Positions 1-14,781 of a stretch of DNA of 14,781 bases are shown one piece after another. The stretch covers positions 1 through 14,781 of IMG/VR virus record IMGVR_UViG_2778261390_000002. The stretch is one strand, 5' to 3'. Each line of letters opens with the position of its first letter. Position 1 is the stretch's first letter. The notes beneath the pieces were generated by a model. That model was not told the DNA's origin. It saw nothing but the letters and a program-made list of their open reading frames with translations, and did no database searches. The position numbers and the translations under genes were made by a program. The DNA is from a virus (Duplodnaviria; Heunggongvirae; Uroviricota; Caudoviricetes).

Positions 1-1125
1 ACTGGCAAACGCCGCCATATCCGGAATTTGGTTTTGCCCGTTACCCACATTTCGTTTTGCCGCTTCTCCCAAACCAAGGTATGCGAGAAGACCAGCTACA
101 TCCTTTCCACTCAAATTAGTCAGCGTATTGTCCAGCGGTTGTTTACCTGCTAGCGCATTAAGCATTGTCGTGGCAAAGTTCGGGTCATTCCCCAGCGCCG
201 CCGCCAGTTCGTTCAATGTATCCAGTGCCGCAGGTGCAGAACCCACCATTCCTGCAATCGCCGATTTCACAAAAGCCGTAGTGGCAATCTGTGTATTGTT
301 GACCGACTGTGCCGCAGTAGGTGCTGTTGGCGTTCCGGTAAGTGCCGGACTCGACAGCGGCGCTTTCAGTGCCAGCGCATTATTAATAGTGGTACTGAAT
401 TTCGGGTCATTGTTAATGGCTGCGGCAATTTCTTTCAGTGTGTCCAGCGTGGCTGGCGCACCGTTAATCAGAGCAGTAATAGCGGCCTGAACAAACTCTG
501 TGGTCGCAATCCGAGTGGTGTTATTTCCTGCTGCAGGCGTCGGCGCTTTTGGTTCTCCGGTAAATGTCGGATTATGTTTCTGCGCATACTGGGTATGAGG
601 ATCTTGTGCGGCAATGTGGTTTCTCATCTGGTCATCCACATACAGCTTTAATTCCAGGACTTTATCATCCACGTATTTACGGGTTGCCAGCACTACAGCA
701 GGGTCGATTTTCAGGATGATATTGTCCGTACTGCTGGTAATCAGCACCATGCGCACGGTCTGGGTACGCCCGCTGCCTTCAGCCAGTTGCGGCTTATAGC
801 TTTCCGGGCAGTTTCCCACGGCAATCAATGCCCCGGACTCATCAAACAGGCCCACTTCACGTATCCACCAACCGCCCTCGTTTTCAGGGATCACCTGTTC
901 AGCAATAATCTGGCTACTGTTCTGCGGGTCGATATAAAGCATATTCAGCGCAGCCCGGCGTTTCTCATTTACCAGTGCCGTCTGCTTTGCGTCCGGCGTT
1001 GGCAATACTCCGCCGCCATCGCCCACCGCCATATGGGTAATTTTTAGCGGCACACCGAGCGCGGCGGCGCTGGCAAGTTTCGCCGCGCCAATATCCGTCA
1101 GCAGGGTATAAAATTTTGTGCTCAT
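1..1125 (-). CDS. H: Tail fibre protein (P2 gpH-like), N-terminal ~375 codons; the 3' end lies beyond the window start
   Basis: Minus-strand frame is open from ATG at 1125 down to position 1 with no stop, which is why it is absent from the ORF track. The ATG overlaps the I stop as ATGA. N-terminus translates MSTKFYTLLTDIGAA, resembling P2 gpH. Codons 243-151 translate ...PAALDTLNELAAALGNDPNFATTMLNAL, a typical phage tail-fibre repeat signature. Position directly downstream of I fits P2 order. Confidence 0.85.
   Translation of the reverse strand, partial: MSTKFYTLLTDIGAAKLASAAALGVPLKITHMAVGDGGGVLPTPDAKQTALVNEKRRAALNMLYIDPQNSSQIIAEQVIPENEGGWWIREVGLFDESGALIAVGNCPESYKPQLAEGSGRTQTVRMVLITSSTDNIILKIDPAVVLATRKYVDDKVLELKLYVDDQMRNHIAAQDPHTQYAQKHNPTFTGEPKAPTPAAGNNTTRIATTEFVQAAITALINGAPATLDTLKEIAAAINNDPKFSTTINNALALKAPLSSPALTGTPTAPTAAQSVNNTQIATTAFVKSAIAGMVGSAPAALDTLNELAAALGNDPNFATTMLNALAGKQPLDNTLTNLSGKDVAGLLAYLGLGEAAKRNVGNGQNQIPDMAAFAS
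152..595 (-). repeat. Intragenic tandem duplication (two units of about 222 nt) inside tail-fibre gene H
   Basis: About 152-373 and 374-595 align by eye at roughly 65 percent identity (for example agcgcattaagcattgtcgtggcaaagttcgggtcatt against agcgcattattaatagtggtactgaatttcgggtcatt). In the gene frame each unit carries an ...LDTLNELAAALGNDPNF...-type motif. Boundaries are approximate. Confidence 0.6.
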
Positions 1126-1727
1126 GGATTCACTCTCATTGTGTCAATAACATGGACCGCCCCGCCTTCATGCGCGGTGCCACCGGAAATAATCGTTTCG
1201 TTGATATACGGATAGATCGTGATTTCTTCGCCAAGATAGCTGGCGGCTCCCACCCAATACGGGCCGCTGGTCTGCAGATTGATGGACATGCCGATCATGT
1301 GGCGGCTACATGGTTTGGCATCGCTTATCAGTCGCTCAAGTTCCAGATAGATATCTTCAGTGATGCCCTGGTCCTGCACGCCGATATCCAGGCGAAACGT
1401 GCCCGGTGCCTCTCCGGTTTGCCACCACTCAATAATGCGGATCAGAAAGCCGAACGGCTCCACCACCCGCCGCACGGCACTGGTGGTCCCTTTATGCTGA
1501 TGAATATAAAAAGCATCCTTCACCACCTGGCGCTTGACGCTTTCTGTCCAGCCTTCGTCCCAGCGATCCACAGAGAACGCCCAGGCGAGATAAGGCAGGA
1601 AGCTGACCGGGCAGGTAGCCGGATTCCACAAGTCACGCAGCGGCACCTGCAGATCAGAAATCCCGCTGCACGTTTGCGCCAGTCGGCGCTCCAGTGAAGT
1701 TGACCCCGATGGCAGCAGACTATTCAT
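1122..1727 (-). CDS. I: Baseplate assembly protein I (P2 gpI-like)
   Basis: 201-aa ORF starting MNSLLPSGSTSLERR..., containing WNPATCP and LAWAFSVDRWDEGW stretches that I recognise as gpI-like. ATG at 1727 with a G-rich SD-like sequence upstream. Overlaps the J stop and the H start, as expected for a translationally coupled baseplate operon. Confidence 0.9.
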   Translation of the reverse strand: MNSLLPSGSTSLERRLAQTCSGISDLQVPLRDLWNPATCPVSFLPYLAWAFSVDRWDEGWTESVKRQVVKDAFYIHQHKGTTSAVRRVVEPFGFLIRIIEWWQTGEAPGTFRLDIGVQDQGITEDIYLELERLISDAKPCSRHMIGMSINLQTSGPYWVGAASYLGEEITIYPYINETIISGGTAHEGGAVHVIDTMRVNP

Positions 1728-2628
1728 CCGTTCCCCCGTTGGTCACGCTCCACTCCGTACATGATGCCGCCTGCGTTTTGTTCAAAACCACATCCGCCAG
1801 CGGCGAAGCCAGCTCCACACGCTGCACACCCTCAACATGCAGGGCGGCAAAGATGGCGCTACGGCGAATATCCCGACCAAGCCGCGTCTGACTGGCGATG
1901 TATTTCTGCAGGCTGGCTTTTGCCGCTGCCATTACCGGCTCTGCTTCCGGTCCCGGATAGAGAAAAATGGTGGCTTCCACGCGATACGGGATGATTTCTG
2001 CGCTGCGAACCGTCAGACGGTCAGCCACCGGGCGGACGTTCTCACTGTTCAGAGCTTTTTCCACCACGTCCAGCAGGTCTTTTTCTGCAGTTCCATCGCC
2101 TTCGCGGCTAAGGACAGTCAGCACCACCTCTGCAGGTGCCGGGCTGGTTGCACTGGCATCCGCCACCCGACCGTCGGCGCTTCGGGCATGAAATTCATAA
2201 GCTGCAGTTGGCCCCGCAACAGAAAGCCCTTCAAAGGCTGCAGGCACACGCAGGCGTAACGCTTCATCGCTTTCCATCACAGCCGCAACGGGTGGCACAG
2301 CGTCATTATCAGCAGGCGTCACCGTCAGGCGTTTCACGTTGTAGTTGGCAGCGAGCTGGTCAAGATCGCCGCCCATTGCGTAAGCCACCATCACAGCCTG
2401 CGCGGCTTCGTTAATGCGCTGGCGCAGAAGCAACTCACGGTAAGCGTTCTCCTGCAGCAATTTGGTGACGGGTTCAGATTCCAGTTCCAGCGTGCGGATC
2501 ACTGCTTCCTGCTCATCTTTCGGATGAAGCGCAACAAATTCGGCCTTGCGTTCGGCAAGCAGCGTCTCAAAGTCCGGCACATCGACAATCTGCGGCGCAG
2601 GCAACTGCGAAAGGTCAATCACTGCCAT
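1720..2628 (-). CDS. J: Baseplate wedge protein J (P2 gpJ-like)
   Basis: Protein from the internal ATG at 2628 starts MAVIDLSQLPAPQIVDVPDFETLLAERKA... and is 302 aa, the length I recall for P2 gpJ. AGGAG lies 6-10 nt upstream of this ATG. The ORF-track start at 2667 is a GTG giving a 13-aa extension that I consider unlikely. Confidence 0.9.
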   Translation of the reverse strand: MAVIDLSQLPAPQIVDVPDFETLLAERKAEFVALHPKDEQEAVIRTLELESEPVTKLLQENAYRELLLRQRINEAAQAVMVAYAMGGDLDQLAANYNVKRLTVTPADNDAVPPVAAVMESDEALRLRVPAAFEGLSVAGPTAAYEFHARSADGRVADASATSPAPAEVVLTVLSREGDGTAEKDLLDVVEKALNSENVRPVADRLTVRSAEIIPYRVEATIFLYPGPEAEPVMAAAKASLQKYIASQTRLGRDIRRSAIFAALHVEGVQRVELASPLADVVLNKTQAASCTEWSVTNGGTDE

Positions 2629-2974
2629 TCTCTGCTCCTGTTGATACGGAAAGGGAAACAGGCACACCGTTATTACGCCGCCCGGTCAGCCCCACCACCA
2701 TTGAACCGTCAAAATTGCTGTTGATGGTGATGGAATCCAGCATCAGCCGTGGCTCCCAGCGACTCAGTGCCACATACACAGCCGACATGACCTGCAGCCG
2801 TAATGCCGGATTTTGTGGCTGATCTATTAAAGCCGACAGCAGAGAACCATATTCACGACGAGCAATGCGGCTACCCTGCGGCGTCAGCAGAATGTCCCGC
2901 ACCGACTGGCGCAGATGGTCAATATCAGTAATGGCTTTGCCGCTGGTATTGTTCATCCCGCTATAAAGCGTCAT
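2615..2974 (-). CDS. W: Baseplate wedge protein W (gp25/GPW family)
   Basis: 119-aa ORF starting MTLYSGMNNTSGKAITDIDHLRQSVRDILLTPQGSR..., GPW-like. ATG at 2974 overlaps the V stop (ATGA). GGAGG SD upstream. Confidence 0.9.
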   Translation of the reverse strand: MTLYSGMNNTSGKAITDIDHLRQSVRDILLTPQGSRIARREYGSLLSALIDQPQNPALRLQVMSAVYVALSRWEPRLMLDSITINSNFDGSMVVGLTGRRNNGVPVSLSVSTGAENGSD

Positions 2975-3549
2975 ACCGGGCCTCCGGTTGTGTCGCCGCC
3001 TTTCAGGACACCAGTATGCTGATGCGCATCAAGCACGATCCCGTTAGAACTCATCGCTCCGCCGCCCTGGGTAACACCGCCATTGATCACCACGTCGCTG
3101 TTAATGCGTGTGCGGTCAGCCTCCAGTACAAACTCACTGGTTTTCAGGGTGATGTTGTCGACAGCCTCAATGACCATTGATTTGATGCCCCTGACATACC
3201 AGCGCCCGGTGGCGGGTTCGTATTCAAACCAGCCACCGTCAGGATATTCTGTCACGCAGGCGTCCGCCGACGTCGACGGCGGTGCGAACTGATTCGAATA
3301 GACAGCGGGCAACGCAAAGGCGGTTTCCAGATTGCCACCCAGACTCAGCAGCACCACCTGCTCACCTTCCGATGGTCGCCACCATGTGCGTGCATTCCCG
3401 GCACGCAGCGTCAGCCAGCTGATCCAGTTGGTTTCAAGGTCGCCCGTTTTCACCCGGCAAAGCCAGTTCTCCCGGTCCACTTCGGTGACTACACCAGTGC
3501 GAATCAGGTTGGTGATAAGGCGCATGATTTCGGTTAAATGTGCGTTCAT
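2971..3549 (-). CDS. V: Baseplate spike / assembly protein V (P2 gpV-like)
   Basis: 192-aa ORF starting MNAHLTEIMRLITNLIRTGVVTEVD..., gpV-like. First gene after the S-V intergenic region. No SD upstream of the ATG at 3549; a late-promoter-like architecture ends 6 nt before it, so the mRNA may be leaderless. An internal ATG at 3525 is an alternative start. Confidence 0.85.
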   Translation of the reverse strand: MNAHLTEIMRLITNLIRTGVVTEVDRENWLCRVKTGDLETNWISWLTLRAGNARTWWRPSEGEQVVLLSLGGNLETAFALPAVYSNQFAPPSTSADACVTEYPDGGWFEYEPATGRWYVRGIKSMVIEAVDNITLKTSEFVLEADRTRINSDVVINGGVTQGGGAMSSNGIVLDAHQHTGVLKGGDTTGGPV

Positions 3550-3613
3550 GAGAAAAAACTAACCGCCATTGCAAACGCAATCGAGTAGATAGGAATGTTT
3601 GATTCATGGCACA
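3550..3613 (-). promoter_or_regulatory. Candidate Ogr-type late promoter for V: TGT-N12-ACA box plus -10-like hexamer
   Basis: TGTTTGATTCATGGCACA at 3596-3613 matches the TGT-N12-ACA dyad of P2/P4 late promoters. Its centre is 55.5 nt upstream of the A of the V ATG. On the minus strand TAGTTT (3561-3556) sits 34 nt after the box and 6 nt before the ATG. The same spacing is seen upstream of P. Confidence 0.55.
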
Positions 3614-3641
3614 ATACGTTGCTTACTTTTAAGGATATAAA

Positions 3642-4403
3642 ATGAAAGACAATTTAAATCTTCTTATAAAAAAATTAATAAGAAAGGCATTTCCTGAATT
3701 TAGCAATAAGGTAACATGGACTTTACTCACTGCAGGGATCGGTATTCTTGCACTACCTGCACCCACATATTTATTATTCGTAAACCTTATAATTGATTTT
3801 TACAACAAAACAACTAATTCAGAAATCAGCCTTCTTAAGATTGATAGCATTACACCAAGTAGTGGGGTTGCTTTAACTTTAATTCTATCCGGGCTAGTCT
3901 TTCACCTATTAATAAAAGCCCCCCATATATACCAAGAAATTCTAAAAGAGAATAACCAAAAAGAAATACAGGAAAGAAAAAGAGTAGCAGACGTTAAACT
4001 TTATGAGGCATTTATTGATATTCTACCTACAACCTCGTTATCAATTGAATTCTTAAAAGACCATGATTTTGAAAACTCCTATCATGATAATAATACAAAA
4101 GATATTAGTAATCTTGAATACGGGTGGGGTCATGCAGATCAACATTTTCATGACAATGAAATTGAAGATAAAGCCACTCATCTTTACAGTGAAATAATAA
4201 AGTTTAATTATTTTCTCGCTTATAAATCGCACAATATCAATGACTATATGTTTAGCATGCTTACTGACAGAGATCGAGCTATGGTGATGGAATTACTACC
4301 TCAAACAAAGGAAAATATAAAAATAGCCAATGAGTGGAGTTCTACAATTCATCAGCTTTACTGTGACTTTATCTCCACATGTAGGAATAACTTAGCCATA
4401 TAA
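3642..4403 (+). CDS. Hypothetical membrane protein encoded by an AT-rich moron between V and S; function unknown
   Basis: 253-aa ORF on the strand opposite to all flanking late genes. ATG at 3642 is preceded by AAGGA at 7 nt spacing. Composition is strongly AT-rich (by eye about 30 percent GC against mid-50s or higher in neighbours). Two hydrophobic segments (VTWTLLTAGIGILALPAPTYLLFVNLIIDF and VALTLILSGLVFHLLI) are followed by a roughly 160-aa polar, charged domain. I recognise no catalytic motif. Confidence 0.7.
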   Translation: MKDNLNLLIKKLIRKAFPEFSNKVTWTLLTAGIGILALPAPTYLLFVNLIIDFYNKTTNSEISLLKIDSITPSSGVALTLILSGLVFHLLIKAPHIYQEILKENNQKEIQERKRVADVKLYEAFIDILPTTSLSIEFLKDHDFENSYHDNNTKDISNLEYGWGHADQHFHDNEIEDKATHLYSEIIKFNYFLAYKSHNINDYMFSMLTDRDRAMVMELLPQTKENIKIANEWSSTIHQLYCDFISTCRNNLAI

Positions 4404-4421
4404 ATTATATGCTGTAGTTAA

Positions 4422-4865
4422 TTAAGACAAGTAACGAAAAAAAATATCACGAGTTATCATTTCCGCTTCGTCGTTAACACCCAAAAGGCGACGCTCTGCA
4501 TAACGGACCTCAGGTCCCTTACGACTGACACGATCGCGCAGGCCGTAGTGATGAACGCGGGCAATGCGCTGCACCTTACCTTCAAACTGCACGCTGGCAG
4601 AATCGGCGCTGGCGGCAGTTTTCAGATATTTTGTGGTGCGCAGCTTTGCAAACATCTGACGTTTGATACGCCCCTTTTTACTGCGTGCTGTTACCCGTCG
4701 CGGTTCATAACTACTGCCATCTGGATTGCGCTGCATCCTGATGTTCTTCTGTTGTGTCCGGCGCAGTTCCTGCGCCAGCTGGCGCATCATGCGACTTCTC
4801 GTGGCTGGTTCCAGATTCGCCAGCAAGGCACTCAACCAGTCGTCCACCTTCTGCAGTTCAGCCAC
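4422..4865 (-). CDS. S: Tail completion protein S (P2 gpS-like)
   Basis: 147-aa ORF starting (GTG)AELQKVDDWLSALLANLEPATRSRMMRQLAQELRR..., gpS-like. The start codon at 4865 is GTG, with no nearby in-frame ATG. Overlaps the R stop by 8 nt. The last 6 or so codons lie in the AT-rich moron segment. Confidence 0.85.
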   Translation of the reverse strand: MAELQKVDDWLSALLANLEPATRSRMMRQLAQELRRTQQKNIRMQRNPDGSSYEPRRVTARSKKGRIKRQMFAKLRTTKYLKTAASADSASVQFEGKVQRIARVHHYGLRDRVSRKGPEVRYAERRLLGVNDEAEMITRDIFFRYLS

Positions 4866-5289
4866 GTTTCACCGTCCACATTTCTTCAGGTTCATCGGGT
4901 TCTGCTACAGCTTCAACGCTCGACACACTGCCGTCAGTGCTGACCAGCACACGCTCCGTCAGTTGCAGGTTCAGGCTGATATCACAGACATCGTTGCGCA
5001 GAATATCCACCTCAAAGGTGAATAGTTTTTCCCGTAACGCCGGGTTATTGATGGCATCGGGCTGGTTATCCCTCAGCCACAGCAAAACCGGGGCCATCAG
5101 CAGATTCTGGTCGCCGCTGAAATCCTCAATCACCGCGTTCAGGGTGTAACGGTACTCCCACGACATGGAGCTGGCCCCCGTGGCAACCAGCGAACCGTTA
5201 TCCACAAACAGATGCAGTTTGTCCGGGTTATTGCGGACATAAGGCACCGCTTTATTGAGGGCGTGGCGCAGGGATTGTGGTTTGTTCAC
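4858..5289 (-). CDS. R: Tail completion protein R (P2 gpR-like)
   Basis: Protein VNKPQSLRHALNKAVPYVRNNPDKLHLFVDNGS... resembles the gpR N-terminus from its first residue. Start is therefore most likely GTG at 5289, with AGGAG 9 nt upstream. The ORF-track start at 5310 is a TTG adding 7 residues. Confidence 0.8.
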   Translation of the reverse strand: MNKPQSLRHALNKAVPYVRNNPDKLHLFVDNGSLVATGASSMSWEYRYTLNAVIEDFSGDQNLLMAPVLLWLRDNQPDAINNPALREKLFTFEVDILRNDVCDISLNLQLTERVLVSTDGSVSSVEAVAEPDEPEEMWTVKRG

Positions 5290-5542
5290 TGTTTCGCTCC
5301 TGACACGCAATAATCATGTCCACTTTGTCTGCACAGACCGCCCAGGCAGCCTCCGTTTCATCCAGCAACGCGTTCAGATCACCATTAGTGCGCGGCGCTG
5401 CCTGCTCCAGCCGACACGGAGTCACTTGCGGACAACCACTGACGGTAAGCTGCACCTCCGGTGAGCGTGGGGCGTTCCCGCAGCCGGATAATGTCAGCAG
5501 GCAAAGGAGTATCAGCCCAGCGGCGTAAATCCTCGTTCTCAC
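5252..5542 (-). CDS. lysC: Outer-membrane spanin lipoprotein (LysC / Rz1-like o-spanin)
   Basis: 96-aa ORF starting at GTG 5542 with GAGGA SD 9 nt upstream. N-terminus MRTRIYAAGLILLCLLTLSGC is a lipoprotein signal peptide with a lipobox; the mature part is Pro-rich. It begins inside lysB in a different frame and runs past the lysB stop, the overlapped arrangement typical of P2 lysB/lysC. Confidence 0.75.
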   Translation of the reverse strand: MRTRIYAAGLILLCLLTLSGCGNAPRSPEVQLTVSGCPQVTPCRLEQAAPRTNGDLNALLDETEAAWAVCADKVDMIIACQERNSEQTTIPAPRPQ

Positions 5543-5813
5543 GTTTCAGTTCCTCAATCCGGTGTTGTCGTTGTCTCAGCAGTGCGCTGGTCTGTTCTGC
5601 GTCGGCATAGAGCCGCGCCTGCTCCCGGTTGTTGGTTTCAGCCAGAATTGACAGACCGATCAGCTGGCTATTTTTCTTCGTTAGTTCCTGCGCTTTACTT
5701 TTCAGCGCCGCGCGCTGCGTTTCGATGGTGTGGCTGGCGCTGTTAAGCCGCCACGACTGCCAGCCCAGCGCAACGAGTGCCAGCGCCACCACTACTGCCA
5801 GAGCACGTGTCAT
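5385..5813 (-). CDS. lysB: Inner-membrane spanin (LysB / Rz-like i-spanin)
   Basis: 142-aa ORF with an N-terminal TM helix (LAVVVALALVALGW) followed by a charged, coiled-coil-like region (ELTKKNSQL...RIEELKRENEDLRRW). ATG at 5813 overlaps the K stop (ATGA). Sits immediately after the endolysin. Confidence 0.8.
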   Translation of the reverse strand: MTRALAVVVALALVALGWQSWRLNSASHTIETQRAALKSKAQELTKKNSQLIGLSILAETNNREQARLYADAEQTSALLRQRQHRIEELKRENEDLRRWADTPLPADIIRLRERPTLTGGAAYRQWLSASDSVSAGAGSAAH

Positions 5814-6325
5814 AGTCCAGCTCCTTTAAGGCACCAGGCCATCTCCCGCGCACGGCGGTTATCCAGCCCCTGATTAAAAACACCTTTTACATAAACCCAG
5901 CGCGGCAACTGTCGGCACGCATCCGCCCAGCGCCGCTGATTGAGTAATTTTACCAGTGTGGAACTGCAGGCATTTCCCGTTCCCACGTTGAAGGCAAACG
6001 ACACCGCAGCGTCATACACCTTCTGCGGCGGCTGTTGCTTCACACACCTTTCCAGCGCCCGCTCCACACGCAGCACGTTGGAGATCAGCCCTTCCGCTGC
6101 CTGTCGTTCCGTAATGGTTTTGCCCGGGATGACGCCCGATGTATTACCAATGCCGTCGGTCCAGACACCCGCGCTGCACTGATACGGCTGCAGACGACAG
6201 CCTTCGTAATCAGCAATCAGTTTCAGCCCCTCCACGGAGGTGTGAAGCTGCTGAAAACCCGGCAGCGTGGCAGCAATAGCCAGCACGGTCCCGACAAGGC
6301 AGCGTTTAACGATTGATGGATTCAT
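5810..6325 (-). CDS. K: SAR endolysin, GH24 lysozyme family (P1 Lyz-type)
   Basis: 171-aa ORF with an N-terminal signal-anchor-release-like segment (KRCLVGTVLAIAATLPG) and a lysozyme core containing E41-x8-C50-x5-T56 plus Cys43 and Cys9. This is the same layout as the P1 Lyz catalytic triad and caging cysteines. ATG at 6325 with GGGAGG SD. Confidence 0.9.
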   Translation of the reverse strand: MNPSIVKRCLVGTVLAIAATLPGFQQLHTSVEGLKLIADYEGCRLQPYQCSAGVWTDGIGNTSGVIPGKTITERQAAEGLISNVLRVERALERCVKQQPPQKVYDAAVSFAFNVGTGNACSSTLVKLLNQRRWADACRQLPRWVYVKGVFNQGLDNRRAREMAWCLKGAGL

Positions 6326-6521
6326 AGTCCTCCCGCGAGATCTGCCCGTCGCGCAGAAGCTGGTAGGCTTTGTGTTTGTAGTACCAGTTGATAGCCAGCA
6401 TCAGCACACCAATCATCAGGCCGCCCAGCGTTGAGGCATCCTTGATGGACAAATCGCCCAGCCAGGCCAGCACGACGGCGATGCAATACGTGATAAAGGC
6501 GCTGATTCGCTCAAGCGTCAT
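6306..6521 (-). CDS. Y: Holin, class II (two TM segments; possible pinholin)
   Basis: 71-aa ORF with two hydrophobic helices (ISAFITYCIAVVLAWL and LGGLMIGVLMLAINWYY) and a charged C-terminus. Lies immediately upstream of, and overlapping, the endolysin gene, at the position of P2 Y. Confidence 0.75.
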   Translation of the reverse strand: MTLERISAFITYCIAVVLAWLGDLSIKDASTLGGLMIGVLMLAINWYYKHKAYQLLRDGQISREDYESINR

Positions 6522-6524
6522 AAT

Positions 6525-6728
6525 TCAGTCCCATAGCTGGACGGTCTGCACGGTGGTGGTGGTCGGAATGTCCGGCAGCTCCACCTGCAGCCCGTGAGGT
6601 AAAAAGGGGCCATATTCGGCAAGCCCCGGATTTGCCTTCAGTACCTGCTCCGTGACACCCTGCGTGCGCCCGTAATGACGCCAGCAAAGCGCGTCCACCG
6701 TGTCATACTGATGCGCACGCACTTTCAT
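6525..6728 (-). CDS. X: Tail protein X (P2 gpX-like)
   Basis: 67-aa ORF MKVRAHQYDTVDALCWRHYGRTQGVTEQVLKANPGL..., matching gpX in size and sequence. Its ATG at 6728-6726 shares one nucleotide with the L stop codon (TGATG). Confidence 0.85.
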   Translation of the reverse strand: MKVRAHQYDTVDALCWRHYGRTQGVTEQVLKANPGLAEYGPFLPHGLQVELPDIPTTTTVQTVQLWD

Positions 6729-7255
6729 CAGATAAGCTCCACTGTGCAGTGCGGCGCGTCCTGTACCCGGCTGATGGCCCAGCGGGCGTCACGCCATAAA
6801 TCACCGCTGGCTTCCGCCAGTTCCTCGCCTCGCTTCACACCAGACGCCGTGGCGTCATAGTCCTGGTATCGTTCGTTGAGCATGGCGCGGGCCCAGCAGT
6901 AAACCGCGTTGAAATAGTGCTGAATGCGCTCACTTTTCCCGTCCAGATGTTCTGCCGGAAGCTCTGCCAGCGAGGCATATCCCAGCATCAGCTGGCGTCT
7001 GCGAAACTCATACAGCTCTGCGTTGACCTCTGAAATTGCCGACAGCGCAACCTGCTTTAAACGCGGCTGCGTCACCGTGCCGTCAGTGCGCATGACACTG
7101 CGAAACTCCGACAAGTCCACATCAGGCCAGAACGGCGTATTCCTGATGATTTCCGCCTGTTCCGGTGCCTGTTCTGGCGCAACAAACTTCATGCTGCTTT
7201 CTCCTGAAATAAAGGGCGGTGGACGGGGCTTTGATGTGGCAGTGCCTTTCGCCAC
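6728..7255 (-). CDS. L: Head completion / stabilisation protein L (P2 gpL-like)
   Basis: ORF contains ...IIRNTPFWPDVDLSEFRSV...ELYEFRRRQL...WRDARWAISRVQ, gpL-like. The long form (GTG at 7255, 175 aa) matches the roughly 169-aa P2 gpL in length and leaves only about 32 nt after M. An internal ATG at 7192 with a strong AGGAGA SD is an alternative start, so the 5' end is uncertain. Confidence 0.75.
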   Translation of the reverse strand: MAKGTATSKPRPPPFISGESSMKFVAPEQAPEQAEIIRNTPFWPDVDLSEFRSVMRTDGTVTQPRLKQVALSAISEVNAELYEFRRRQLMLGYASLAELPAEHLDGKSERIQHYFNAVYCWARAMLNERYQDYDATASGVKRGEELAEASGDLWRDARWAISRVQDAPHCTVELI

Positions 7256-7287
7256 CCCGTGCCGCCCGTGCGCGGGGGCACGTTCTG

Positions 7288-7938
7288 TCAGCGGCTGTCA
7301 TTGCGCAGTCTGCGCTCCAGCTGCTGTTTGTCTTTTTTCACGCCACAGCGGGGATCGAGCTGTAACGCATGGTTGAGATGATTAAGGGCGGAAGCCGGAT
7401 TGCTTTCACTCAGGACAGCGCCAATCGCTTTATGCAGACGCGCCCGTGACTGGTCCGGCATATCCAGACCGTCTGTCAGCTCCAGCGTCTGCAACAACAG
7501 ATCGGCATCAAAGCCGGTGGCGGCAAGCATTGCGCTCTGCGCGGCGTCTGCCATTTCCTCTGCCAGCACGGCCTGCACATTGCGGTTACCCAGTGGCATC
7601 ACCCAGCCATGACGCAGGGCATGACGCCCGATCTCCAGCGCCCCGGCATAATCTCCGGCATCAATGCGCCACAGCATCACGTACATCAGCACGTCATCCT
7701 GTTGAGTGCCTCCGGCAGCCAGGACGCCCTCTGCCCAGGCGGCGTACTTCGGCAGCAGCTCCACCTTTATTTCCGCTTTTTTCACCGTGGACTGAACGCC
7801 CTTGAGACGGCGGCGGTCTTCCGCCAGTTGCAGCAGCATCAGGTCATAGCCCGACGCGTGGCGAACACTGCCGCCCTCGCGGGCGGCCTGTTCAGCCTGA
7901 ACGCGCAGGCGATGCTGCCGTGCGGGACTCAGGCTCAT
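7288..7938 (-). CDS. M: Terminase small (endonuclease) subunit M (P2 gpM-like)
   Basis: 216-aa ORF MSLSPARQHRLRVQAEQAAREGGSVRHASGYDLMLLQLAEDRR..., gpM-like. ATG at 7938 with GGAG SD. Shorter than the roughly 247-aa P2 gpM because the basic C-terminal tail is missing. Confidence 0.85.
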   Translation of the reverse strand: MSLSPARQHRLRVQAEQAAREGGSVRHASGYDLMLLQLAEDRRRLKGVQSTVKKAEIKVELLPKYAAWAEGVLAAGGTQQDDVLMYVMLWRIDAGDYAGALEIGRHALRHGWVMPLGNRNVQAVLAEEMADAAQSAMLAATGFDADLLLQTLELTDGLDMPDQSRARLHKAIGAVLSESNPASALNHLNHALQLDPRCGVKKDKQQLERRLRNDSR

Positions 7939-7941
7939 GGA

Positions 7942-9000
7942 TTACGCTCCGGCTTCTGCTGCGGCTGCGCTGAAGTCGCCAATCTGGATGTTTTCCACCA
8001 GTGCAGCGCAGCGGTAGTCCTCAACCACATAGGCTTCGTTAACGGATTCAAAATTTTCAATCCGGTCACGTTTTGGGTTGTCGATAACCGAACGACGGCG
8101 GGTGTCTTCCTGCCAGTAGATGGACAGGTTATCCAGACGGGTGATCAGCAGCGCATTCGGCGGGAAGAACGGCGCACGCACGGCCTGCAGGCCACCCATG
8201 CGTTTCTGACTGATGATCATATCGGCAGCCAGTTTTTCACTGTTTTCCTGCTCTTTGTTGACCAGCGGGAAATACTTGTCAGACAGCAGTTCACGACCGC
8301 AAATCACAACCAGATCGTCATCGTCCTGATAGACCACGTCGATAAGCTCGTTAACGGCATCCATCACCACGGCGTCCAGGTTGGCATATTCGCCACCTTT
8401 CCCGACTTTCACCGCACCCGGTGTGGTTTCACCGCCCGTGGTGGTGCTGCCCATGACGTGATCCGGTGCATCCTCACGGATTTTCTGCAGCCAGCCTTTA
8501 TTCACATCCTGCAGTAGCGGGTTTTCGCTACGGTTGGAGGTTTTCGCACGCTTCACGCCGTTAAAGCCGATCATGATGCGGTCCAGTGCCTGACGTTTCA
8601 CGATGGCGTCACGGATACGCACCTGAAAATCCTGAAACTTCGCCCACAGGTCCAGCTTCGCGTAGGTCAGTACCGTGTCAAAGTTGGTCTGCTCGCATTT
8701 ATATTCCACATCGACCATCAGCGTCGGATCGACAGGTTCACGCTCTTTCGCGGTGGTATCAGTGGTTCCGGCAATGGTGCTGCCAACTCCCAACCCCAGC
8801 AGCTGACCGGACTGCTCAGTCACTGGCGTGACGTTAATCAGCGTCAGGAAAGCGGCGGACTGCTGGATCTGGTCTTCCAGTGTCTGCTGCACGGACGGCT
8901 CTACGGTGAACTTGCTGGACAGTTCTTCAACTGCCACACCGTTCAGACGCGCCAGTTGCTGCAGGTAAGCGTTAAAAGCAAAGCGGGTATTCTTCTTCAT
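7942..9000 (-). CDS. N: Major capsid protein N (P2 gpN-like)
   Basis: 352-aa ORF MKKNTRFAFNAYLQQLARLNG...KFTVEPSVQQTL...VVEDYRCAALVENIQIGDFS, closely resembling P2 gpN along its length. ATG at 9000 with GGAG SD. Confidence 0.95.
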   Translation of the reverse strand: MKKNTRFAFNAYLQQLARLNGVAVEELSSKFTVEPSVQQTLEDQIQQSAAFLTLINVTPVTEQSGQLLGLGVGSTIAGTTDTTAKEREPVDPTLMVDVEYKCEQTNFDTVLTYAKLDLWAKFQDFQVRIRDAIVKRQALDRIMIGFNGVKRAKTSNRSENPLLQDVNKGWLQKIREDAPDHVMGSTTTGGETTPGAVKVGKGGEYANLDAVVMDAVNELIDVVYQDDDDLVVICGRELLSDKYFPLVNKEQENSEKLAADMIISQKRMGGLQAVRAPFFPPNALLITRLDNLSIYWQEDTRRRSVIDNPKRDRIENFESVNEAYVVEDYRCAALVENIQIGDFSAAAAEAGA

Positions 9001-9016
9001 CAGGTTTTGTGCTCCA

Positions 9017-9850
9017 TCAGCAATTGGTCAGAGTGTCAGCGGGGGCGTTACCGCCTGTTGCACGCTGGCGGTAGTCCTGGCGGCTGTCTTCTTGGCTCAA
9101 CTTGTCCACCAGTTCGTTAAAGGCGGTCTGCTGTGCCTGCAGGGCAGTCTCCAGCTCAGACAGGCGTTCTTCCTGCTCAGACAGGGATTTTTCGGTGCGC
9201 GCACTCAGGTTCTGCTGCTCAGTGGCGACCAGTTCCACGGCCTTATGCACATCAGAGAACCGGGCATCATCGGACTGCTCTTTTTTGGTGAACAGCGCCG
9301 TGACACGGGCAAACAGGGACGGTTTGTCATCCTGGATTTCTTCCAGTTCGATCACCGTTTCCTCTGCAGCGGTAAAAAGATTGGCGGGATTCTGCTTGCG
9401 GTTTGCCAGCGGGTTTTGGGCTGCACTGGCGCTGAATGTCAGCATTTCAGTGCCCAGACTGGCAGGGTCATCAGTGGCAGCCAGGCCGACCAGGTAGGCT
9501 TTGCCCGTATCAGCGAACTTCGGGCTGACTTCCATAGAGGTGAATAATTTCTGGCCTTTTTTCACCAGTTCCACCAGGGACTCCGTTGGCTCAACGTCGG
9601 CATACAGCGCCATCTTGCCTGCCAGCGGACCTTCCGTGATTTCTTCAGCAAACAGCGCCGTCACCTTGCCGTAGCGGTTAAAGGTGCTGTCCGGGAGATA
9701 AGACTTGATGTGCTCAAGGTTAATCAGCGCGGTATACACCGCCGGGTTGTAGCTGGCTGCCATCTGTTCCAGCCATTCACGCTGGATTTCGCGTCCGTCG
9801 GTGGTGGCACCTTCCACCCCGATGCGAAAACGCTTTGCTTTCACTGTCAT
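9017..9850 (-). CDS. O: Capsid scaffolding protein O (P2 gpO-like)
   Basis: 277-aa ORF MTVKAKRFRIGVEGATTDGREIQ...YLVGLAATDDPASLGTEMLTF...ATGGNAPADTLTNC, gpO-like. ATG at 9850 with GGAG SD. First gene of the leftward late operon, divergent from P. Confidence 0.9.
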   Translation of the reverse strand: MTVKAKRFRIGVEGATTDGREIQREWLEQMAASYNPAVYTALINLEHIKSYLPDSTFNRYGKVTALFAEEITEGPLAGKMALYADVEPTESLVELVKKGQKLFTSMEVSPKFADTGKAYLVGLAATDDPASLGTEMLTFSASAAQNPLANRKQNPANLFTAAEETVIELEEIQDDKPSLFARVTALFTKKEQSDDARFSDVHKAVELVATEQQNLSARTEKSLSEQEERLSELETALQAQQTAFNELVDKLSQEDSRQDYRQRATGGNAPADTLTNC

Positions 9851-9928
9851 GAGCCGTGCTCCGTTAGAAAAAACTTACTGGAGCCTTATGGTTGCGGTGA
9901 TGGGGGCAGTGAAACAATGCGCGGTATT

Positions 9929-9992
9929 TGTACCGACAACCACACAAACCGCAGGCGGGGAAAGCCTTCATTCAAGGTTGTAGGTTTGTGCC
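9929..9992 (+). promoter_or_regulatory. Candidate Ogr-type late promoter for P/Q: TGT-N12-ACA box plus -10-like hexamer
   Basis: TGTACCGACAACCACACA at 9929-9946 matches TGT-N12-ACA. Its centre is 55.5 nt upstream of the A of the P ATG. TAGGTT at 9981-9986 sits 34 nt after the box and 6 nt before the ATG. This is the same geometry as upstream of V. Confidence 0.5.
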
Positions 9993-11759
9993 ATGAACAC
10001 CACACTGACACCCGCAGATCTCGATCCCCGTCGGCAGGCCATGCTGCTGTACTTTCAGGGATACCGCGTAGCCCGCATTGCTGAAATGCTGGGCGAGAAA
10101 GTTGCAACCGTTCACAGCTGGAAAAAACGCGACAAGTGGGGTGACTATGGGCCGCTGGATCAGATGCAGCTCACCACCGCCGCACGCTACTGCCAGCTCA
10201 TTATGAAGGAGCACAAAGAAGGGAAAGATTTCAAAGAGATTGACCTGCTGGCGCGCCAGTCTGAGCGCCACGCGCGGATCGGCAAATTTAACAATGGCGG
10301 CAACGAAGCCGACTTAAATCCTAACGTCGCCAACCGCAACAAAGGCCCGCGCCGTCAGCCGGAAAAAAATGTCTTCACCGATGAACAGATTGAGAAGCTG
10401 GAAGAAATCTTCCATTCCTCCATGTTCAACTACCAGCGCCACTGGTGGGAAGCCGGAAAAACCAACCGCATCCGCAACCTGCTGAAGTCACGCCAGATCG
10501 GCGCGACCTTCTATTTTGCCCGTGAAGCCCTGATTGACGCCCTGCTTACCGGACGTAACCAGATTTTCCTTTCTGCCAGTAAGGCACAGGCCCACGTCTT
10601 TAAGCAGTACATCATCGACTTCGCCAAAGAAGTGGAGGTGGAGCTGAAAGGCGATCCGATGGTGCTTCCTAACGGGGCCACGCTTTACTTCCTCGGCACC
10701 AATGCCCGCACGGCCCAGAGTTATCACGGCAACCTGTATCTGGATGAATATTTCTGGATACCGAAATTTCAGGAGCTACGCAAAGTGGCTTCCGGTATGG
10801 CTATTCACAAGAAATGGCGGCAGACCTATTTTTCCACACCATCCAGTCTGACCCACAGTGCTTATCCGTTCTGGTCCGGTGCGCTGTTCAACCGTGGGCG
10901 CAACAAAGCCGATAAGGTGGACATCGACCTGTCCCACAGCAATCTGGCCCCCGGCCTGCTGTGCGCAGACGGGCAATACCGCCAGATAGTCACCGTGGAA
11001 GATGCGGTGCGCGGCGGCTGTAACCTGTTCGATCTCGACCAGTTGCGCATGGAGTACAGCCCGGACGAATACCAGAACCTGCTGATGTGTGAGTTCGTGG
11101 ACGATCTCGCGTCCGTGTTCCCGCTCAGCGAGCTGCAGGCGTGCATGGTGGACAGCTGGGAAGTCTGGACCGACTTTCATGCACTGGCGCTGCGCCCGTT
11201 TGGCTGGCGCGAAGTGTGGATCGGTTATGACCCGGCAAAAGGTACGCAAAACGGCGACAGCGCCGGGTGCGTGGTGGTGGCACCGCCAGCGGTGCCAGGC
11301 GGTAAGTTTCGCATTCTTGAGCGTCACCAGTGGCGCGGGATGGACTTCCGCGCCCAGGCTGACGCCATCAAAAAACTGACCGAACAGTACAACGTGACCT
11401 ATATCGGCATCGACTCAACCGGCGTCGGTCACGGGGTTTACGAGAACGTGAAAGCGTTTTTTCCTGCCGTCCGGGAGTTTGTCTACAACCCCAACGTTAA
11501 AAACGCCCTAGTACTCAAGGCCTACGACATTATTAGCCACCGCCGCCTGGAGTTTGACGCCGGGCACACCGACATAGCGCAGTCCTTTATGGCAATCCGT
11601 CGCGCCACCACTGCCAGCGGCAACCGCCCGACCTATGAAGCCAGCCGCAGCGAAGAAGCCAGCCACGCCGATCTGGCCTGGGCAACAATGCACGCACTGT
11701 TTAACGAACCGCTGCAGGGCGAGTCCGCCAATACCAGCAATATTGTGGAGATTTTTTGA
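9993..11759 (+). CDS. P: Terminase large (ATPase) subunit P (P2 gpP-like)
   Basis: 588-aa ORF, close to the roughly 590 aa of P2 gpP, with gpP-like sequence throughout. 9993 is the first start codon after an in-frame TAG. Stop TGA overlaps the Q ATG (TGATG). Confidence 0.95.
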   Translation: MNTTLTPADLDPRRQAMLLYFQGYRVARIAEMLGEKVATVHSWKKRDKWGDYGPLDQMQLTTAARYCQLIMKEHKEGKDFKEIDLLARQSERHARIGKFNNGGNEADLNPNVANRNKGPRRQPEKNVFTDEQIEKLEEIFHSSMFNYQRHWWEAGKTNRIRNLLKSRQIGATFYFAREALIDALLTGRNQIFLSASKAQAHVFKQYIIDFAKEVEVELKGDPMVLPNGATLYFLGTNARTAQSYHGNLYLDEYFWIPKFQELRKVASGMAIHKKWRQTYFSTPSSLTHSAYPFWSGALFNRGRNKADKVDIDLSHSNLAPGLLCADGQYRQIVTVEDAVRGGCNLFDLDQLRMEYSPDEYQNLLMCEFVDDLASVFPLSELQACMVDSWEVWTDFHALALRPFGWREVWIGYDPAKGTQNGDSAGCVVVAPPAVPGGKFRILERHQWRGMDFRAQADAIKKLTEQYNVTYIGIDSTGVGHGVYENVKAFFPAVREFVYNPNVKNALVLKAYDIISHRRLEFDAGHTDIAQSFMAIRRATTASGNRPTYEASRSEEASHADLAWATMHALFNEPLQGESANTSNIVEIF

Positions 11760-12790
11760 TGGGAAAGAGTAAGAAAAACCGCGCTGCGGCGACGAATCAG
11801 CTCAAGCATAAAAGCCAAACTTCAGCCGAAGCATTCAGCTTTGGCGATCCCGTTCCTGTTCTGGACCGCCGTGAACTGCTGGACTATGTGGAATGCGTAC
11901 AGATGGACCGCTGGTATGAGCCGCCCGTCAGCTTTGACGGACTGGCACGAACCTTCCGCGCCGCCGTGCATCACAGCTCACCAATTGCGGTGAAATGCAA
12001 CATTCTGACCAGTACCTACATCCCTCACCCGCTGCTCAGCCAGCAGGCTTTTTCACGTTTTGTGCAGGACTATCTGGTATTTGGTAACGCCTACCTGGAG
12101 AAACGCACGAACCGCTTCGGTGAAGTTATCGCCCTTGAGCCTGCTCTGGCAAAATACACCCGACGCGGGTTAGACTTGGATACCTACTGGTTTGTGCAAT
12201 ACGGTATGACAACCCAGCCGTATCAGTTCACGAAAGGCAGCATTTTTCATCTGATGGAACCGGACATCAACCAGGAGATCTACGGCCTGCCAGGTTATCT
12301 TTCTGCCATTCCATCAGCCCTGCTCAACGAGTCCGCCACGCTGTTCCGCCGCAAGTATTACATTAACGGCAGTCATGCAGGCTTCATCATGTACATGACC
12401 GATGCCGCGCAGAACCAGGAGGATGTGAACAACCTCCGCAATGCGATGAAAAGCGCCAAAGGCCCTGGCAACTTCCGTAACCTGTTTATGTACTCGCCTA
12501 ACGGTAAAAAGGACGGGCTTCAGATTATCCCGTTGTCAGAAGTGGCGGCGAAGGATGAGTTCCTGAATATCAAGAACGTGAGCCGGGACGACATGATGGC
12601 GGCGCATCGTGTGCCGCCACAAATGATGGGGATAATGCCTAATAATGTCGGGGGGTTTGGGGATGTGGAGAAGGCCAGTCTCGTTTTTGTTCGTAATGAG
12701 TTAATACCATTGCAGAAACGACTAAAGGAACTAAATCACTGGCTTGGTGAGAAAGTAGTTAACTTTAAAACTTATGCCTTAAACTGTTAA
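11759..12790 (+). CDS. Q: Portal protein Q (P2 gpQ-like)
   Basis: 343 aa from ATG 11759 (MGKSKKNRAAATNQ...AFSFGDPVPVLDRRELLDYVECVQMDRWYEPPVSF...), gpQ-like. GGAG lies 10 nt upstream. The ORF-track start at 11756 is a TTG one codon earlier. Confidence 0.95.
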   Translation: MGKSKKNRAAATNQLKHKSQTSAEAFSFGDPVPVLDRRELLDYVECVQMDRWYEPPVSFDGLARTFRAAVHHSSPIAVKCNILTSTYIPHPLLSQQAFSRFVQDYLVFGNAYLEKRTNRFGEVIALEPALAKYTRRGLDLDTYWFVQYGMTTQPYQFTKGSIFHLMEPDINQEIYGLPGYLSAIPSALLNESATLFRRKYYINGSHAGFIMYMTDAAQNQEDVNNLRNAMKSAKGPGNFRNLFMYSPNGKKDGLQIIPLSEVAAKDEFLNIKNVSRDDMMAAHRVPPQMMGIMPNNVGGFGDVEKASLVFVRNELIPLQKRLKELNHWLGEKVVNFKTYALNC

Positions 12791-12807
12791 AAATGATTAT
12801 GAAACAA

Positions 12808-12826
12808 GGCGCTTAACATAAGCGCC
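12808..12826. terminator. Candidate bidirectional intrinsic terminator between convergent Q and the island gene
   Basis: Perfect hairpin GGCGCTTA-aca-TAAGCGCC (8-bp stem, 3-nt loop), placed between the Q stop (12790) and the minus-strand gene stop (12836). Flanks are A/T-rich on both strands, but neither side has a clean U-run. Confidence 0.45.
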
Positions 12827-12835
12827 CAATATATA

Positions 12836-14617: not shown

Positions 14618-14654
14618 ATCATCATTCCCTAGACATGACCATGGGTTGATCGTT

Positions 14655-14683
14655 AATTTACTTAACAAGATAGATTAAAACAA
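14655..14683 (-). promoter_or_regulatory. Candidate sigma70-type promoter for the DUF262/DUF1524 gene
   Basis: Minus strand reads TTGTTT (14683-14678), a 17-nt spacer, then TAAATT (14660-14655). Predicted start near 14648, about 30 nt upstream of ATG 14617. Lies in AT-rich DNA, so a chance match is possible. Confidence 0.35.
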
Positions 14684-14710
14684 CTATTACTAATTCATAT
14701 CTCAGCGCGC

Positions 14711-14730
14711 GCTCGTATCCCCGCCACGCC
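14711..14730. other. cos-like cohesive-end site (P2/186-type)
   Basis: Minus strand reads GGCGTGGCGGGGATACGAGC followed by GCGCGCTGAG. The first 13 nt match the 19-nt cohesive ends I recall for 186 (GGCGTGGCGGGGAAAGCAT) and, with one mismatch, P2 (GGCGAGGCGGGGAAAGCAC). Orientation and position fit P2, where Q is transcribed toward the left cos. An abrupt return to GC-rich sequence occurs at about 14703. Confidence 0.5.
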
Positions 14731-14781
14731 TGCCCGCTTTATGTAGTGGTTTTCATGCACCTGCATGATCTACGCAAAAGC

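Follow-up and report, generated by a model that had tools for sequence, protein, structure and literature searches.

A single-gene cargo between the V and S genes of P2-like prophages encodes a candidate one-protein anti-phage defence

Introduction

Why does a P2-like prophage carry a lone AT-rich gene on the opposite strand between its late genes V and S, and what could the encoded protein do? We analyzed this locus in a 14,781-nucleotide stretch of DNA from a Caudoviricetes virus (IMG/VR record IMGVR_UViG_2778261390_000002, positions 1 to 14,781; hereafter the window), in which a protein of 253 amino acids (aa) with two predicted transmembrane (TM) helices and a polar C-terminal part is encoded between the genes for the baseplate spike gpV and the tail protein gpS. 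In P2 the hotspots between A and Q (old/tin) and at Z/fun hold swappable defence genes (PMC9122126, PMC9519451, PMC13586616; 10.1101/2024.10.15.618418). In these papers the S-V slot, a known variable site (P2 orf30), does not figure as a defence hotspot, and it is not named explicitly in PMC9122126, PMC13586616 and PMC9519451; PMC13586616 mentions a hotspot 'within the tail genes'. Our computational analysis points, with a probability of roughly one half, to an anti-phage defence in this slot that consists of one protein and combines sensor and effector (abortive infection).

Results

A C-terminal domain shared by membrane proteins and TIR proteins

Hydropathy analysis agrees with the layout given in a preliminary description of this DNA, namely two N-terminal hydrophobic helices followed by a polar domain of about 160 aa (Table 1). 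The N-terminus is rich in lysine and arginine (six K/R), a short neutral loop joins the two helices, and TM helix 2 (TM2) is followed by a further K/R-rich stretch. By the positive-inside rule this pattern suggests an N-in/C-in topology with the polar domain facing the cytoplasm. In AlphaFold2 (AF2) models made with the family alignment, residues ~100-253 form an all-helical bundle with predicted local distance difference test (pLDDT) scores of 88-98, and TM2 continues into this bundle as one long helix (residues 72-127; pLDDT 58-72 in the membrane part). The region of TM helix 1 (TM1) is modelled as helices 24-36 and 40-58 with low pLDDT. We call the C-terminal bundle domain X.

To identify relatives we ran an exhaustive phmmer search over 1.84 billion representative proteins (E <= 1e-3), which returned 125 proteins, nearly all with a hydrophobic N-terminus. 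Domain X (~140-145 aa) lies at the extreme C-terminus in all but one of the aligned relatives, and it is the N-terminal part that varies. This part is either the same module of ~100 aa with two TM helices (2TM), marked by the motif FP(D/E)FxNKxTW, or one of several shorter, unrelated hydrophobic modules of one or two helices. In four proteins it is a TIR domain, of the Cap12/Pycsar effector type in P0112, P0122 and P0128 and of the TIR_2/ThsB-like type in P0099. Domain X is recognisable by eye in these TIR-X proteins from the pattern FLRDHDFGNSF...W-x2-AE-x-F-HD. Immune proteins of the sensor-effector type, such as PycTM/PycTIR and TM-/TIR-STING, are characterised by one C-terminal domain that can stand behind TM helices or behind a TIR NADase. 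When 95 of the relatives were scanned with PADLOC, all the matches were to TIR-type models, except for one weak ZorA match (E 6.7e-4); the same 95 have no Pfam family in common, TIR being found in the four proteins only. Profile searches of a 5.8-billion-protein index with full-length and domain-X alignments gave no new architectures, the word index being the limiting factor of these searches.

Across the 95 distant relatives the conserved positions of domain X are D117, L120, LP-S, (H)DF, W162-x2-A-E/D-x2-F169 and N230, and in the close family the C-terminal part shares the motifs W-G-x-A-D-Q-H-F-H-D and A-N. Members of the prophage subfamily resemble each other more in the membrane module than in domain X (67% versus 52% mean pairwise identity), which fits a constant effector joined to a faster-evolving sensor without proving it. 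The preliminary description had recognised no motif in the polar domain, and library scans lead to the same result: the window protein has no match in Pfam or NCBIfam and chance-level matches only in PHROGs (E >= 0.087). No structural or housekeeping protein matched it in the profile searches either. Comparison with PDB and BFVD gave no specific structural match but chance-level ones only; the top Foldseek matches, all weak (E 0.6-1.3), are ligand-binding four-helix bundles from chemoreceptors and histidine kinases. Domain X has no sequence or fold match to cNMP-binding, SAVED, STING, SLOG or Macro domains. The DHDF and QHFHD motifs were also considered as an HD-phosphohydrolase or HEPN-type motif, and this was rejected because the histidines are not conserved in the 95 relatives and neither the structure nor Pfam gives an HD or HEPN match.

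A real gene, rare and under selection

Positions 3550-4421 contain a single long open reading frame (ORF) in the ORF listing, that of the cargo gene, which starts with an ATG. The G+C content is 0.32 over this interval and 0.318 over the ORF (0.27 at third codon positions), compared with 0.572 for V and ~0.56 for the remaining late region (0.56-0.57 in the flanking late genes). The description of the locus as an AT-rich moron on the opposite strand between V and S is thus supported by the ORF, the composition and the matches of the flanking genes. Since the chance of 253 stop-free codons at the base composition of the segment is about 1.5e-9, we regard the ORF as a real gene and not as a chance reading frame. 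Relative to the 60%-identical homologue of locus L002 the proportion of non-synonymous differences is 0.24 and that of synonymous differences 0.76 (saturated), which argues for purifying selection; the closest pair of alleles differs by just five codons (two synonymous, three non-synonymous), too few for dN/dS.

The product is identical to WP_096148416.1, annotated 'hypothetical protein', and E. coli strains A37 and M2 are identical to the window across the slot region. The gene was found in 12-14 of 5426 complete E. coli genomes, or 12-14 of the ~1040 that carry the V-S backbone, and is therefore cargo and not a core gene of this lineage. No homologue of the protein was found on 72,556 plasmids, and a tblastn search against 50,697 phage records gave no match.

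Insertions of IS1 were observed at this locus. In the pig enterotoxigenic E. coli (ETEC) strains ETEC4089 (L035) and ETEC1702 the gene is split by IS1 into two annotated 'hypothetical proteins'; the insertion lies after nucleotide ~206 of the gene (about position 3847 of the window) and has a clean 9-bp target duplication. Another strain carries IS1 in the S-V slot beside a DUF6216 gene (L033). It appears either that IS1 is drawn to the slot or that the cargo may carry a cost.

The S-V slot holds exchangeable genes, several of them defence-like

DNA alignment of the loci shows that homology among cargo variants ends at the V start codon, and megablast matches of ~1000 E. coli genomes stop at query positions 150-158, which correspond to window positions 3549-3557. 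On the other side, DNA and protein alignments of loci with different cargo lose their homology within S, ~45-55 nt from its 3' end: gpS residues 1-131 are conserved and the C-terminus is different in every cargo variant. As the breakpoint lies inside S, every cargo supplies its own last ~15 gpS residues. The earlier idea that the AT-rich acquisition had reshaped the 3' end of S is borne out by these breakpoints and by the drop in G+C content in the last S codons (Table 1). The V-S span is 1895 bp in the window versus 1094 bp, with a 71-bp spacer, in relatives with an empty slot. The genes for gpW and gpR are located beyond the gpV and gpS flanks.

In the P2 RefSeq record S is followed by a putative O-operon terminator, then by Orf30 (261 aa, on the opposite strand and labelled 'nonessential'), and lastly by the activator-binding site of pV and V itself. 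This record and PMC6823313 place the window gene at the P2 orf30 position, as the preliminary description had proposed. The likeness to P2 Orf30 extends to the location between S and the pV activator site, the orientation opposite to the late genes, the AT-richness and the non-essential character of the locus (PMC6823313), and phage R18C holds a different 741-bp ORF at the same position (PMC6823313). Unlike its location, the sequence of the window protein has no relationship to P2 Orf30 (NP_046770.1; hhalign probability 0.15 against the 95-sequence family profile).

To survey the occupants of the slot we sampled 60 evenly spaced records from the 1044 E. coli records with this V-S backbone. The slot is empty (71-bp spacer) in ~31 of the 60, as it is in phage 500465-1 and many Klebsiella phages. 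The remaining records carry DUF6216 genes (five), FRG-domain genes (three), a TIR gene, a DUF2971 gene, various hypothetical genes (seven), the present gene (one) or larger inserts (ten), one of which was inspected and consists of IS1 and DUF6216. The locus had been predicted to hold variable cargo, and the comparison of V-S junctions across prophages, with about half empty and the rest occupied by unrelated genes, is what such a locus should look like. Three of the occupants resemble defence genes: a 266-aa TIR protein encoded on the late-gene strand (L030, 956-1756, minus strand; PADLOC PDC-S66, SpbK- and ThsB-like), a 311-aa FRG-domain protein (L031, 965-1900, plus strand; PADLOC PDC-S15, 8.5e-32) and a 289-aa DUF2971 protein (L032, 961-1830, plus strand; PADLOC PDC-S31, 1.9e-24). 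The S-V slot is thus a cargo site that may be enriched in defence-like genes and could be a third defence hotspot of P2-like phages, following the same logic as the described hotspots old/tin (between A and Q) and Z/fun.

Distant kinship between these cargos was also considered. Profile comparison revealed none between the window protein and the DUF6216, 219-aa, 176-aa, TIR or P2 Orf30 proteins, and the slot cargos are also unrelated among themselves.

The sampled records with DUF6216 include the E. coli B laboratory strains BLR(DE3), BL21-AI and NEBExpress (hits H156-H158), in which the slot of a P2-like prophage remnant encodes a DUF6216 membrane protein of 231 aa (L003, 1750-2445). This DUF6216 slot protein has no PADLOC match.

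The window contains a second AT-rich cargo (12836-14668, minus strand; G+C 0.33), which encodes 610 aa just beyond the portal gene Q, at the P2 old/tin position. The product matches Pfam GmrSD_N and GmrSD_C, PADLOC HEC-06 (2.7e-73) and phrog_21165, and is annotated 'DUF262 domain-containing protein' in E. coli A37. By these matches it is a predicted type IV (modified-DNA) restriction-like defence gene.

Alleles of the family in prophages

The close family comprises 31 clusters at 90% identity, all unnamed, from Escherichia, Salmonella, Klebsiella, Enterobacter, Raoultella, Lonsdalea and Erwinia. All members with visible context adjoin gpV and all but one also adjoin gpS, in the same orientation; this set includes two distant members (45-49% identity) and all 12 IMG/VR loci. 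Alleles from L045-L047 are 47% identical to the window protein while their gpV is 96% identical, which indicates that the slot exchanges divergent alleles of the family as well as unrelated genes.

The member without a complete gpS neighbour comes from Erwinia billingiae (L005, 5336-7187), where the homologue lies with gpV and a partial gpS in an apparent decayed prophage remnant. The surrounding genes encode SDR dehydrogenases, a ParE/Phd pair and an M78 peptidase, the V-cargo pair having outlived the other phage genes.

The slot holds one gene in all prophages examined except L006/L007, a distant P2-like prophage in which a 220-aa hydrophobic protein precedes the homologue (5263-7011). This 220-aa protein has no cyclase, TIR, PADLOC or other family match. 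The homologue itself is called as 336 aa, probably from a start too far upstream because the family-conserved part begins at residue ~73.

Relatives carried as single integron cassettes

A pattern scan of one genome per species led to the identification of 15 loci with 2TM-X relatives of ~30% identity, in Marinomonas, Halomonas, Pseudoalteromonas, Aeromonas, Photobacterium, Bowmanella, Stutzerimonas, Gilvimarinus, Pseudomonas and other genera. The FP(D/E)FxNKxTW motif is kept in this integron-cassette subfamily. No P2 genes lie near the 15 loci, and in 11 of the 12 loci examined the gene is a single integron cassette with attC-type bounds: GTTAGCA stands immediately upstream, the stop codon lies inside GCTAACAA, and an imperfect palindrome follows up to GTTAG or GTTAT. 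In Pseudomonas sp. G34 (L028, 4350-12960) the cassette is one of at least 14, in an array with 14 near-identical attC-like repeats of 76-84 nt. Stutzerimonas nitrititolerans has four to five repeats, and there the homologue occupies the first cassette position, next to a divergent IntI-type integrase (Phage_integrase and Phage_int_SAM_4; L023, 6883-8832); Gilvimarinus has an IntI-like integrase nearby (L024, 4492-8750). The 5' end of the cassette, GTTAGCACYC..AGGAG, is alike across genera, which suggests that the cassette has moved between integrons. Each of these cassettes contains one ORF, and their mobility as single-cassette units argues that these ~30%-identity genes work alone. The one pattern scan returned no Vibrio locus.

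The window gene itself is not an integron cassette, as it lies in a prophage and no conserved attC-like site was found at its 3' end. A vestigial attC had been considered there (a TAAC...GTTA palindrome at 4388-4420) and was dropped because the palindrome is not conserved in the homologous prophage loci.

Integron cassettes are reported to be rich in defence genes, and a sizeable fraction of cassettes of unknown function is reported to be phage-protective, including those for TM-only proteins (10.1101/2024.07.02.601686; 10.1101/2024.07.02.601719). Two other contexts lend weight in this direction: one 34%-identity relative stands beside type I restriction-modification genes, an SMC/AAA ATPase gene and an IS element, and one short TM-X relative beside BrnT/BrnA and DUF4160/DUF2442 pairs. 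Five nucleotides separate the short TM-X relative P0102 from a preceding gene for 195 aa without family match (L011, 91-1265), and the two may be a two-gene variant of the system.

Discussion

Proposed function of the cargo protein

The reading we prefer, a one-protein defence of the sensor-plus-effector kind, draws on the architectures of domain X, on the defence-like alleles of the slot (TIR, FRG, DUF2971) and on the GmrSD/HEC-06 gene in the same prophage. A defence role of any kind would be, if anything, marginally more probable than an even bet. Under the proposed mechanism, the gene would be expressed in the lysogen from a putative promoter that overlaps the PV activator site. The cytoplasmic domain X would hold the protein inactive until an infection cue, either a phage protein or a phage-caused change in the cell, and would then change conformation or oligomerise, the signal passing through the long helix continuous with TM2. 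Assembly of the 2TM modules would depolarise or permeabilise the inner membrane, and the infected cell would stop before the phage cycle is complete. In the TIR-X relatives the same trigger would lead to NAD+ breakdown. Membrane suicide as the specific mechanism is a tentative proposal, which we hold to be doubtful rather than probable.

A broader view would make domain X an undescribed family of phage-sensing modules that switch on a 2TM effector or a TIR NADase within one polypeptide. Such modules would spread as one-gene units, through the S-V slot in P2-like prophages of Enterobacterales and through chromosomal integrons in marine and soil Gammaproteobacteria, and the S-V junction would be the third defence hotspot of P2-like phages. 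We regard this combined view as possible, at somewhat less than even odds. Fusion of a sensor to a TM or TIR effector is a known working principle; none of the libraries searched (PADLOC 2.0.0, Pfam, NCBIfam and PHROGs) contains this family or domain X.

Among the closest known systems are the effectors of CBASS, Pycsar and Thoeris (PycTM/PycTIR, TM-STING/TIR-STING, Cap15 and TM-Macro ThsA), in which, as here, a C-terminal domain stands behind TM helices or a TIR domain, the one found with domain X being of the Cap12/Pycsar type. This analogy suggests the same working principle, a sensor that switches on a suicide effector. Unlike these systems, the window family has no adjacent signal-producing enzyme (CD-NTase, pyrimidine cyclase or ThsB) in the slot or the cassettes. 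Domain X is also unrelated to their sensors by sequence and fold search. In the window family the effector comes first and the sensor forms the very C-terminus. We also count Csx28, the accessory membrane pore of Cas13b, and SLATT-type 2TM effectors among the closest known systems. Brigantia, from the V. cholerae superintegron, and Deva/BrcWGS21, from mobile integrons, are single-gene TM cassettes without known domain, for which experiments have shown protection from phages (10.1101/2024.07.02.601686; 10.1101/2024.07.02.601719). Single integron cassettes likewise encode relatives of the window protein, a likeness in general description.

Several observations weigh against a defence function of this kind. 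PADLOC-DB 2.0.0 has no match to the window protein at E <= 1 and none to domain X, and the PADLOC matches of the four TIR-X proteins cover the TIR part alone. Only 4 of the 125 representatives belong to the rare TIR fusions, and these lie on contigs so short that no neighbouring genes are visible. The defence-like slot cargos match 'candidate' PADLOC families only and no validated systems. The membrane module, which would be the effector, is modelled by AF2 at low confidence (pLDDT 40-65). A strict scan for sigma-70 and consensus elements gave no promoter and no terminator at the cargo gene, so that the promoter proposed above is a reading of the sequence by eye. Lastly, most integron cassettes are not defence genes.

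Alternative explanations

The best of the alternatives, although itself unlikely, is cargo without a defence role: a factor for lysogenic conversion or membrane stress, or else a membrane toxin or an addiction gene by which the prophage or the integron is stabilised. The lack of any defence model matching the window protein is in line with it, as are the many toxin-antitoxin and unknown cassettes that integrons carry (10.1101/2024.07.02.601686), and if the gene were costly or toxic, its disruption by IS1 in the pig strains ETEC4089 and ETEC1702 would be in keeping with that. Against this reading, there is no antitoxin-like gene in the slot or in the cassettes, which have one ORF each; moreover, the Cap12/Pycsar- and ThsB-type TIR partners of domain X are typical of immunity and other alleles of the slot are defence-like.

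Superinfection exclusion, in which an inner-membrane protein blocks the entry of incoming phage DNA without killing the cell, also seems improbable. HK97 gp15, T4 Imm and P22 SieA are small inner-membrane proteins of phages or prophages, some of them encoded by morons among tail genes, and a small predicted inner-membrane protein encoded by a prophage moron adjoining tail genes would fit this group. The membrane-only integron defence cassette Deva is likewise reported to interfere with genome injection (10.1101/2024.07.02.601719). Unlike HK97 gp15, T4 Imm and P22 SieA, the window protein has a large conserved domain that is predicted to be cytoplasmic, while its periplasmic loop has just ~20 residues. 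In addition, domain X also follows a soluble TIR domain in proteins without TM helix, which could not act at the entry channel, and several unrelated TM modules are interchangeable before it, which fits a generic effector better than a specific contact with the injection apparatus. The predicted cytoplasmic location of the polar domain and its fusion elsewhere to a soluble TIR instead of TM helices are thus the reasons for which, of the two functions suggested in the preliminary description, we favour abortive infection over exclusion.

Less probable again is a partner-dependent effector or adaptor, whose domain X would bind a small-molecule signal from another system or pair with an identical domain elsewhere. 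Alternation of TM and TIR modules on one C-terminal domain is the pattern of the nucleotide-responsive systems CBASS, Pycsar and Thoeris, and the top Foldseek matches, although not significant (E 0.6-1.3), are ligand-binding four-helix bundles. On the other hand, neither the prophage slots nor the integron cassettes have an adjacent gene for a partner such as a cyclase, a TIR protein or an NTPase, no known family of nucleotide sensors matches domain X, and the mobility of the gene as a single cassette argues that it works alone. An accessory of the lytic cycle, tuning for example lysis or tail assembly, is very improbable: its location between the lysis/tail-completion operon and the baseplate operon would suit such a membrane protein, but the gene is on the opposite strand outside the late operons, is absent from about half of the close prophages and from isolated phages of the lineage, is elsewhere replaced by unrelated genes, has relatives in integrons without phage genes nearby, and occupies the place of the P2 Orf30 gene, which is annotated non-essential.

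If the protein of the preferred reading, a sensor fused to a membrane effector, is protective, it would be a compact one-gene immune system of 253 aa with a new sensor domain, and TM-X and TIR-X would form a natural pair for studying how one sensor drives two suicide outputs. The S-V/orf30 junction would then be a defence hotspot worth mining, as about half of the ~1040 E. coli genomes with the backbone carry cargo, including DUF6216 in BL21-type strains, and the link between prophage slot and integron would be an example of single-gene defences crossing between quite dissimilar mobile platforms. Should the protein not be protective, the gene would be an ordinary prophage moron of unassigned function.

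Regulatory elements and feature coordinates

The coordinates of the slot, the genes and the predicted elements are collected in Table 1. A dyad of the form TGT-N12-ACA, the consensus of Ogr-dependent late promoters (PMC3931495), lies upstream of V and is likely the binding site of an Ogr/B-type late activator for the PV promoter of the V operon. The six slot variants that were aligned, the empty slot among them, all keep a dyad at this position, while the surrounding sequence differs, and the P2 record has an 'activator binding site; activation of pV promoter' annotated at the equivalent place. The extended -10-like element is a putative promoter of the cargo gene, which by its position would start transcription near 3622; related -10-like elements (TGGCACAAT, TGATACAAT and TGACACAAT) are found upstream of the homologues in L002, L005 and L006. 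The inverted repeat downstream of the gene may be a bidirectional terminator; the hairpin is weak (-8 kcal/mol) and the repeat is not conserved in homologous loci.

Table 1 Features of the S-V slot and its borders in window coordinates.
Feature	Position	Strand	Basis or remark
gpV baseplate spike, left conserved border	2971-3549	-	Pfam Phage_base_V (6.1e-18) and Apex
Exchangeable cargo segment, ~920 bp	3550-4469	.	G+C 0.32; PV promoter region, cargo gene and last ~16 S codons
TGT-N12-ACA dyad	3596-3613	.	Pattern match; centre 55.5 nt upstream of V ATG
TGgCACAAT, extended -10-like element	3607-3615	+	Read from sequence; overlaps right half of dyad
AAGGA, Shine-Dalgarno-like	3631-3635	+	6 nt before ATG; also upstream of L002 and L005 homologues
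Cargo gene	3642-4403	+	253 aa; 31 clusters of close relatives, Enterobacterales
FPEFSNKVTW codons (residues 17-26), just before TM1	3690-3719	+	Invariant in 28/28 aligned family members
Predicted TM1 (residues ~27-52), kink at LPAP	3720-3797	+	Kyte-Doolittle peak up to 2.03
Predicted TM2 (residues ~72-95)	3855-3926	+	Kyte-Doolittle peak 1.98
Domain X, helical bundle, ~145 aa (residues ~110-253)	3969-4400	+	C-terminal, predicted cytoplasmic
AT-rich 16-nt inverted repeat	4388-4420	.	Between convergent stops of cargo gene and S
Last ~16 codons of gpS, cargo-variant-specific	4422-4469	-	48 nt, G+C 0.31 versus 0.558 in rest of S
gpS, whole gene	4422-4865	-	Phage_tail_S
Conserved part of gpS, right border	4470-4865	-	Pfam Phage_tail_S (9.9e-41); alignments

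A second TGT-N12-ACA dyad lies at 9929-9946, with its centre 55.5 nt upstream of the ATG of the terminase gene P at 9993. In the P2 record (L048, 1740-1809) the transcription start of V is annotated at the first base of the V start codon. From this annotation and the dyad-to-ATG distances of 55.5 nt, it appears that phages of this group make a leaderless mRNA for V and perhaps also for P.

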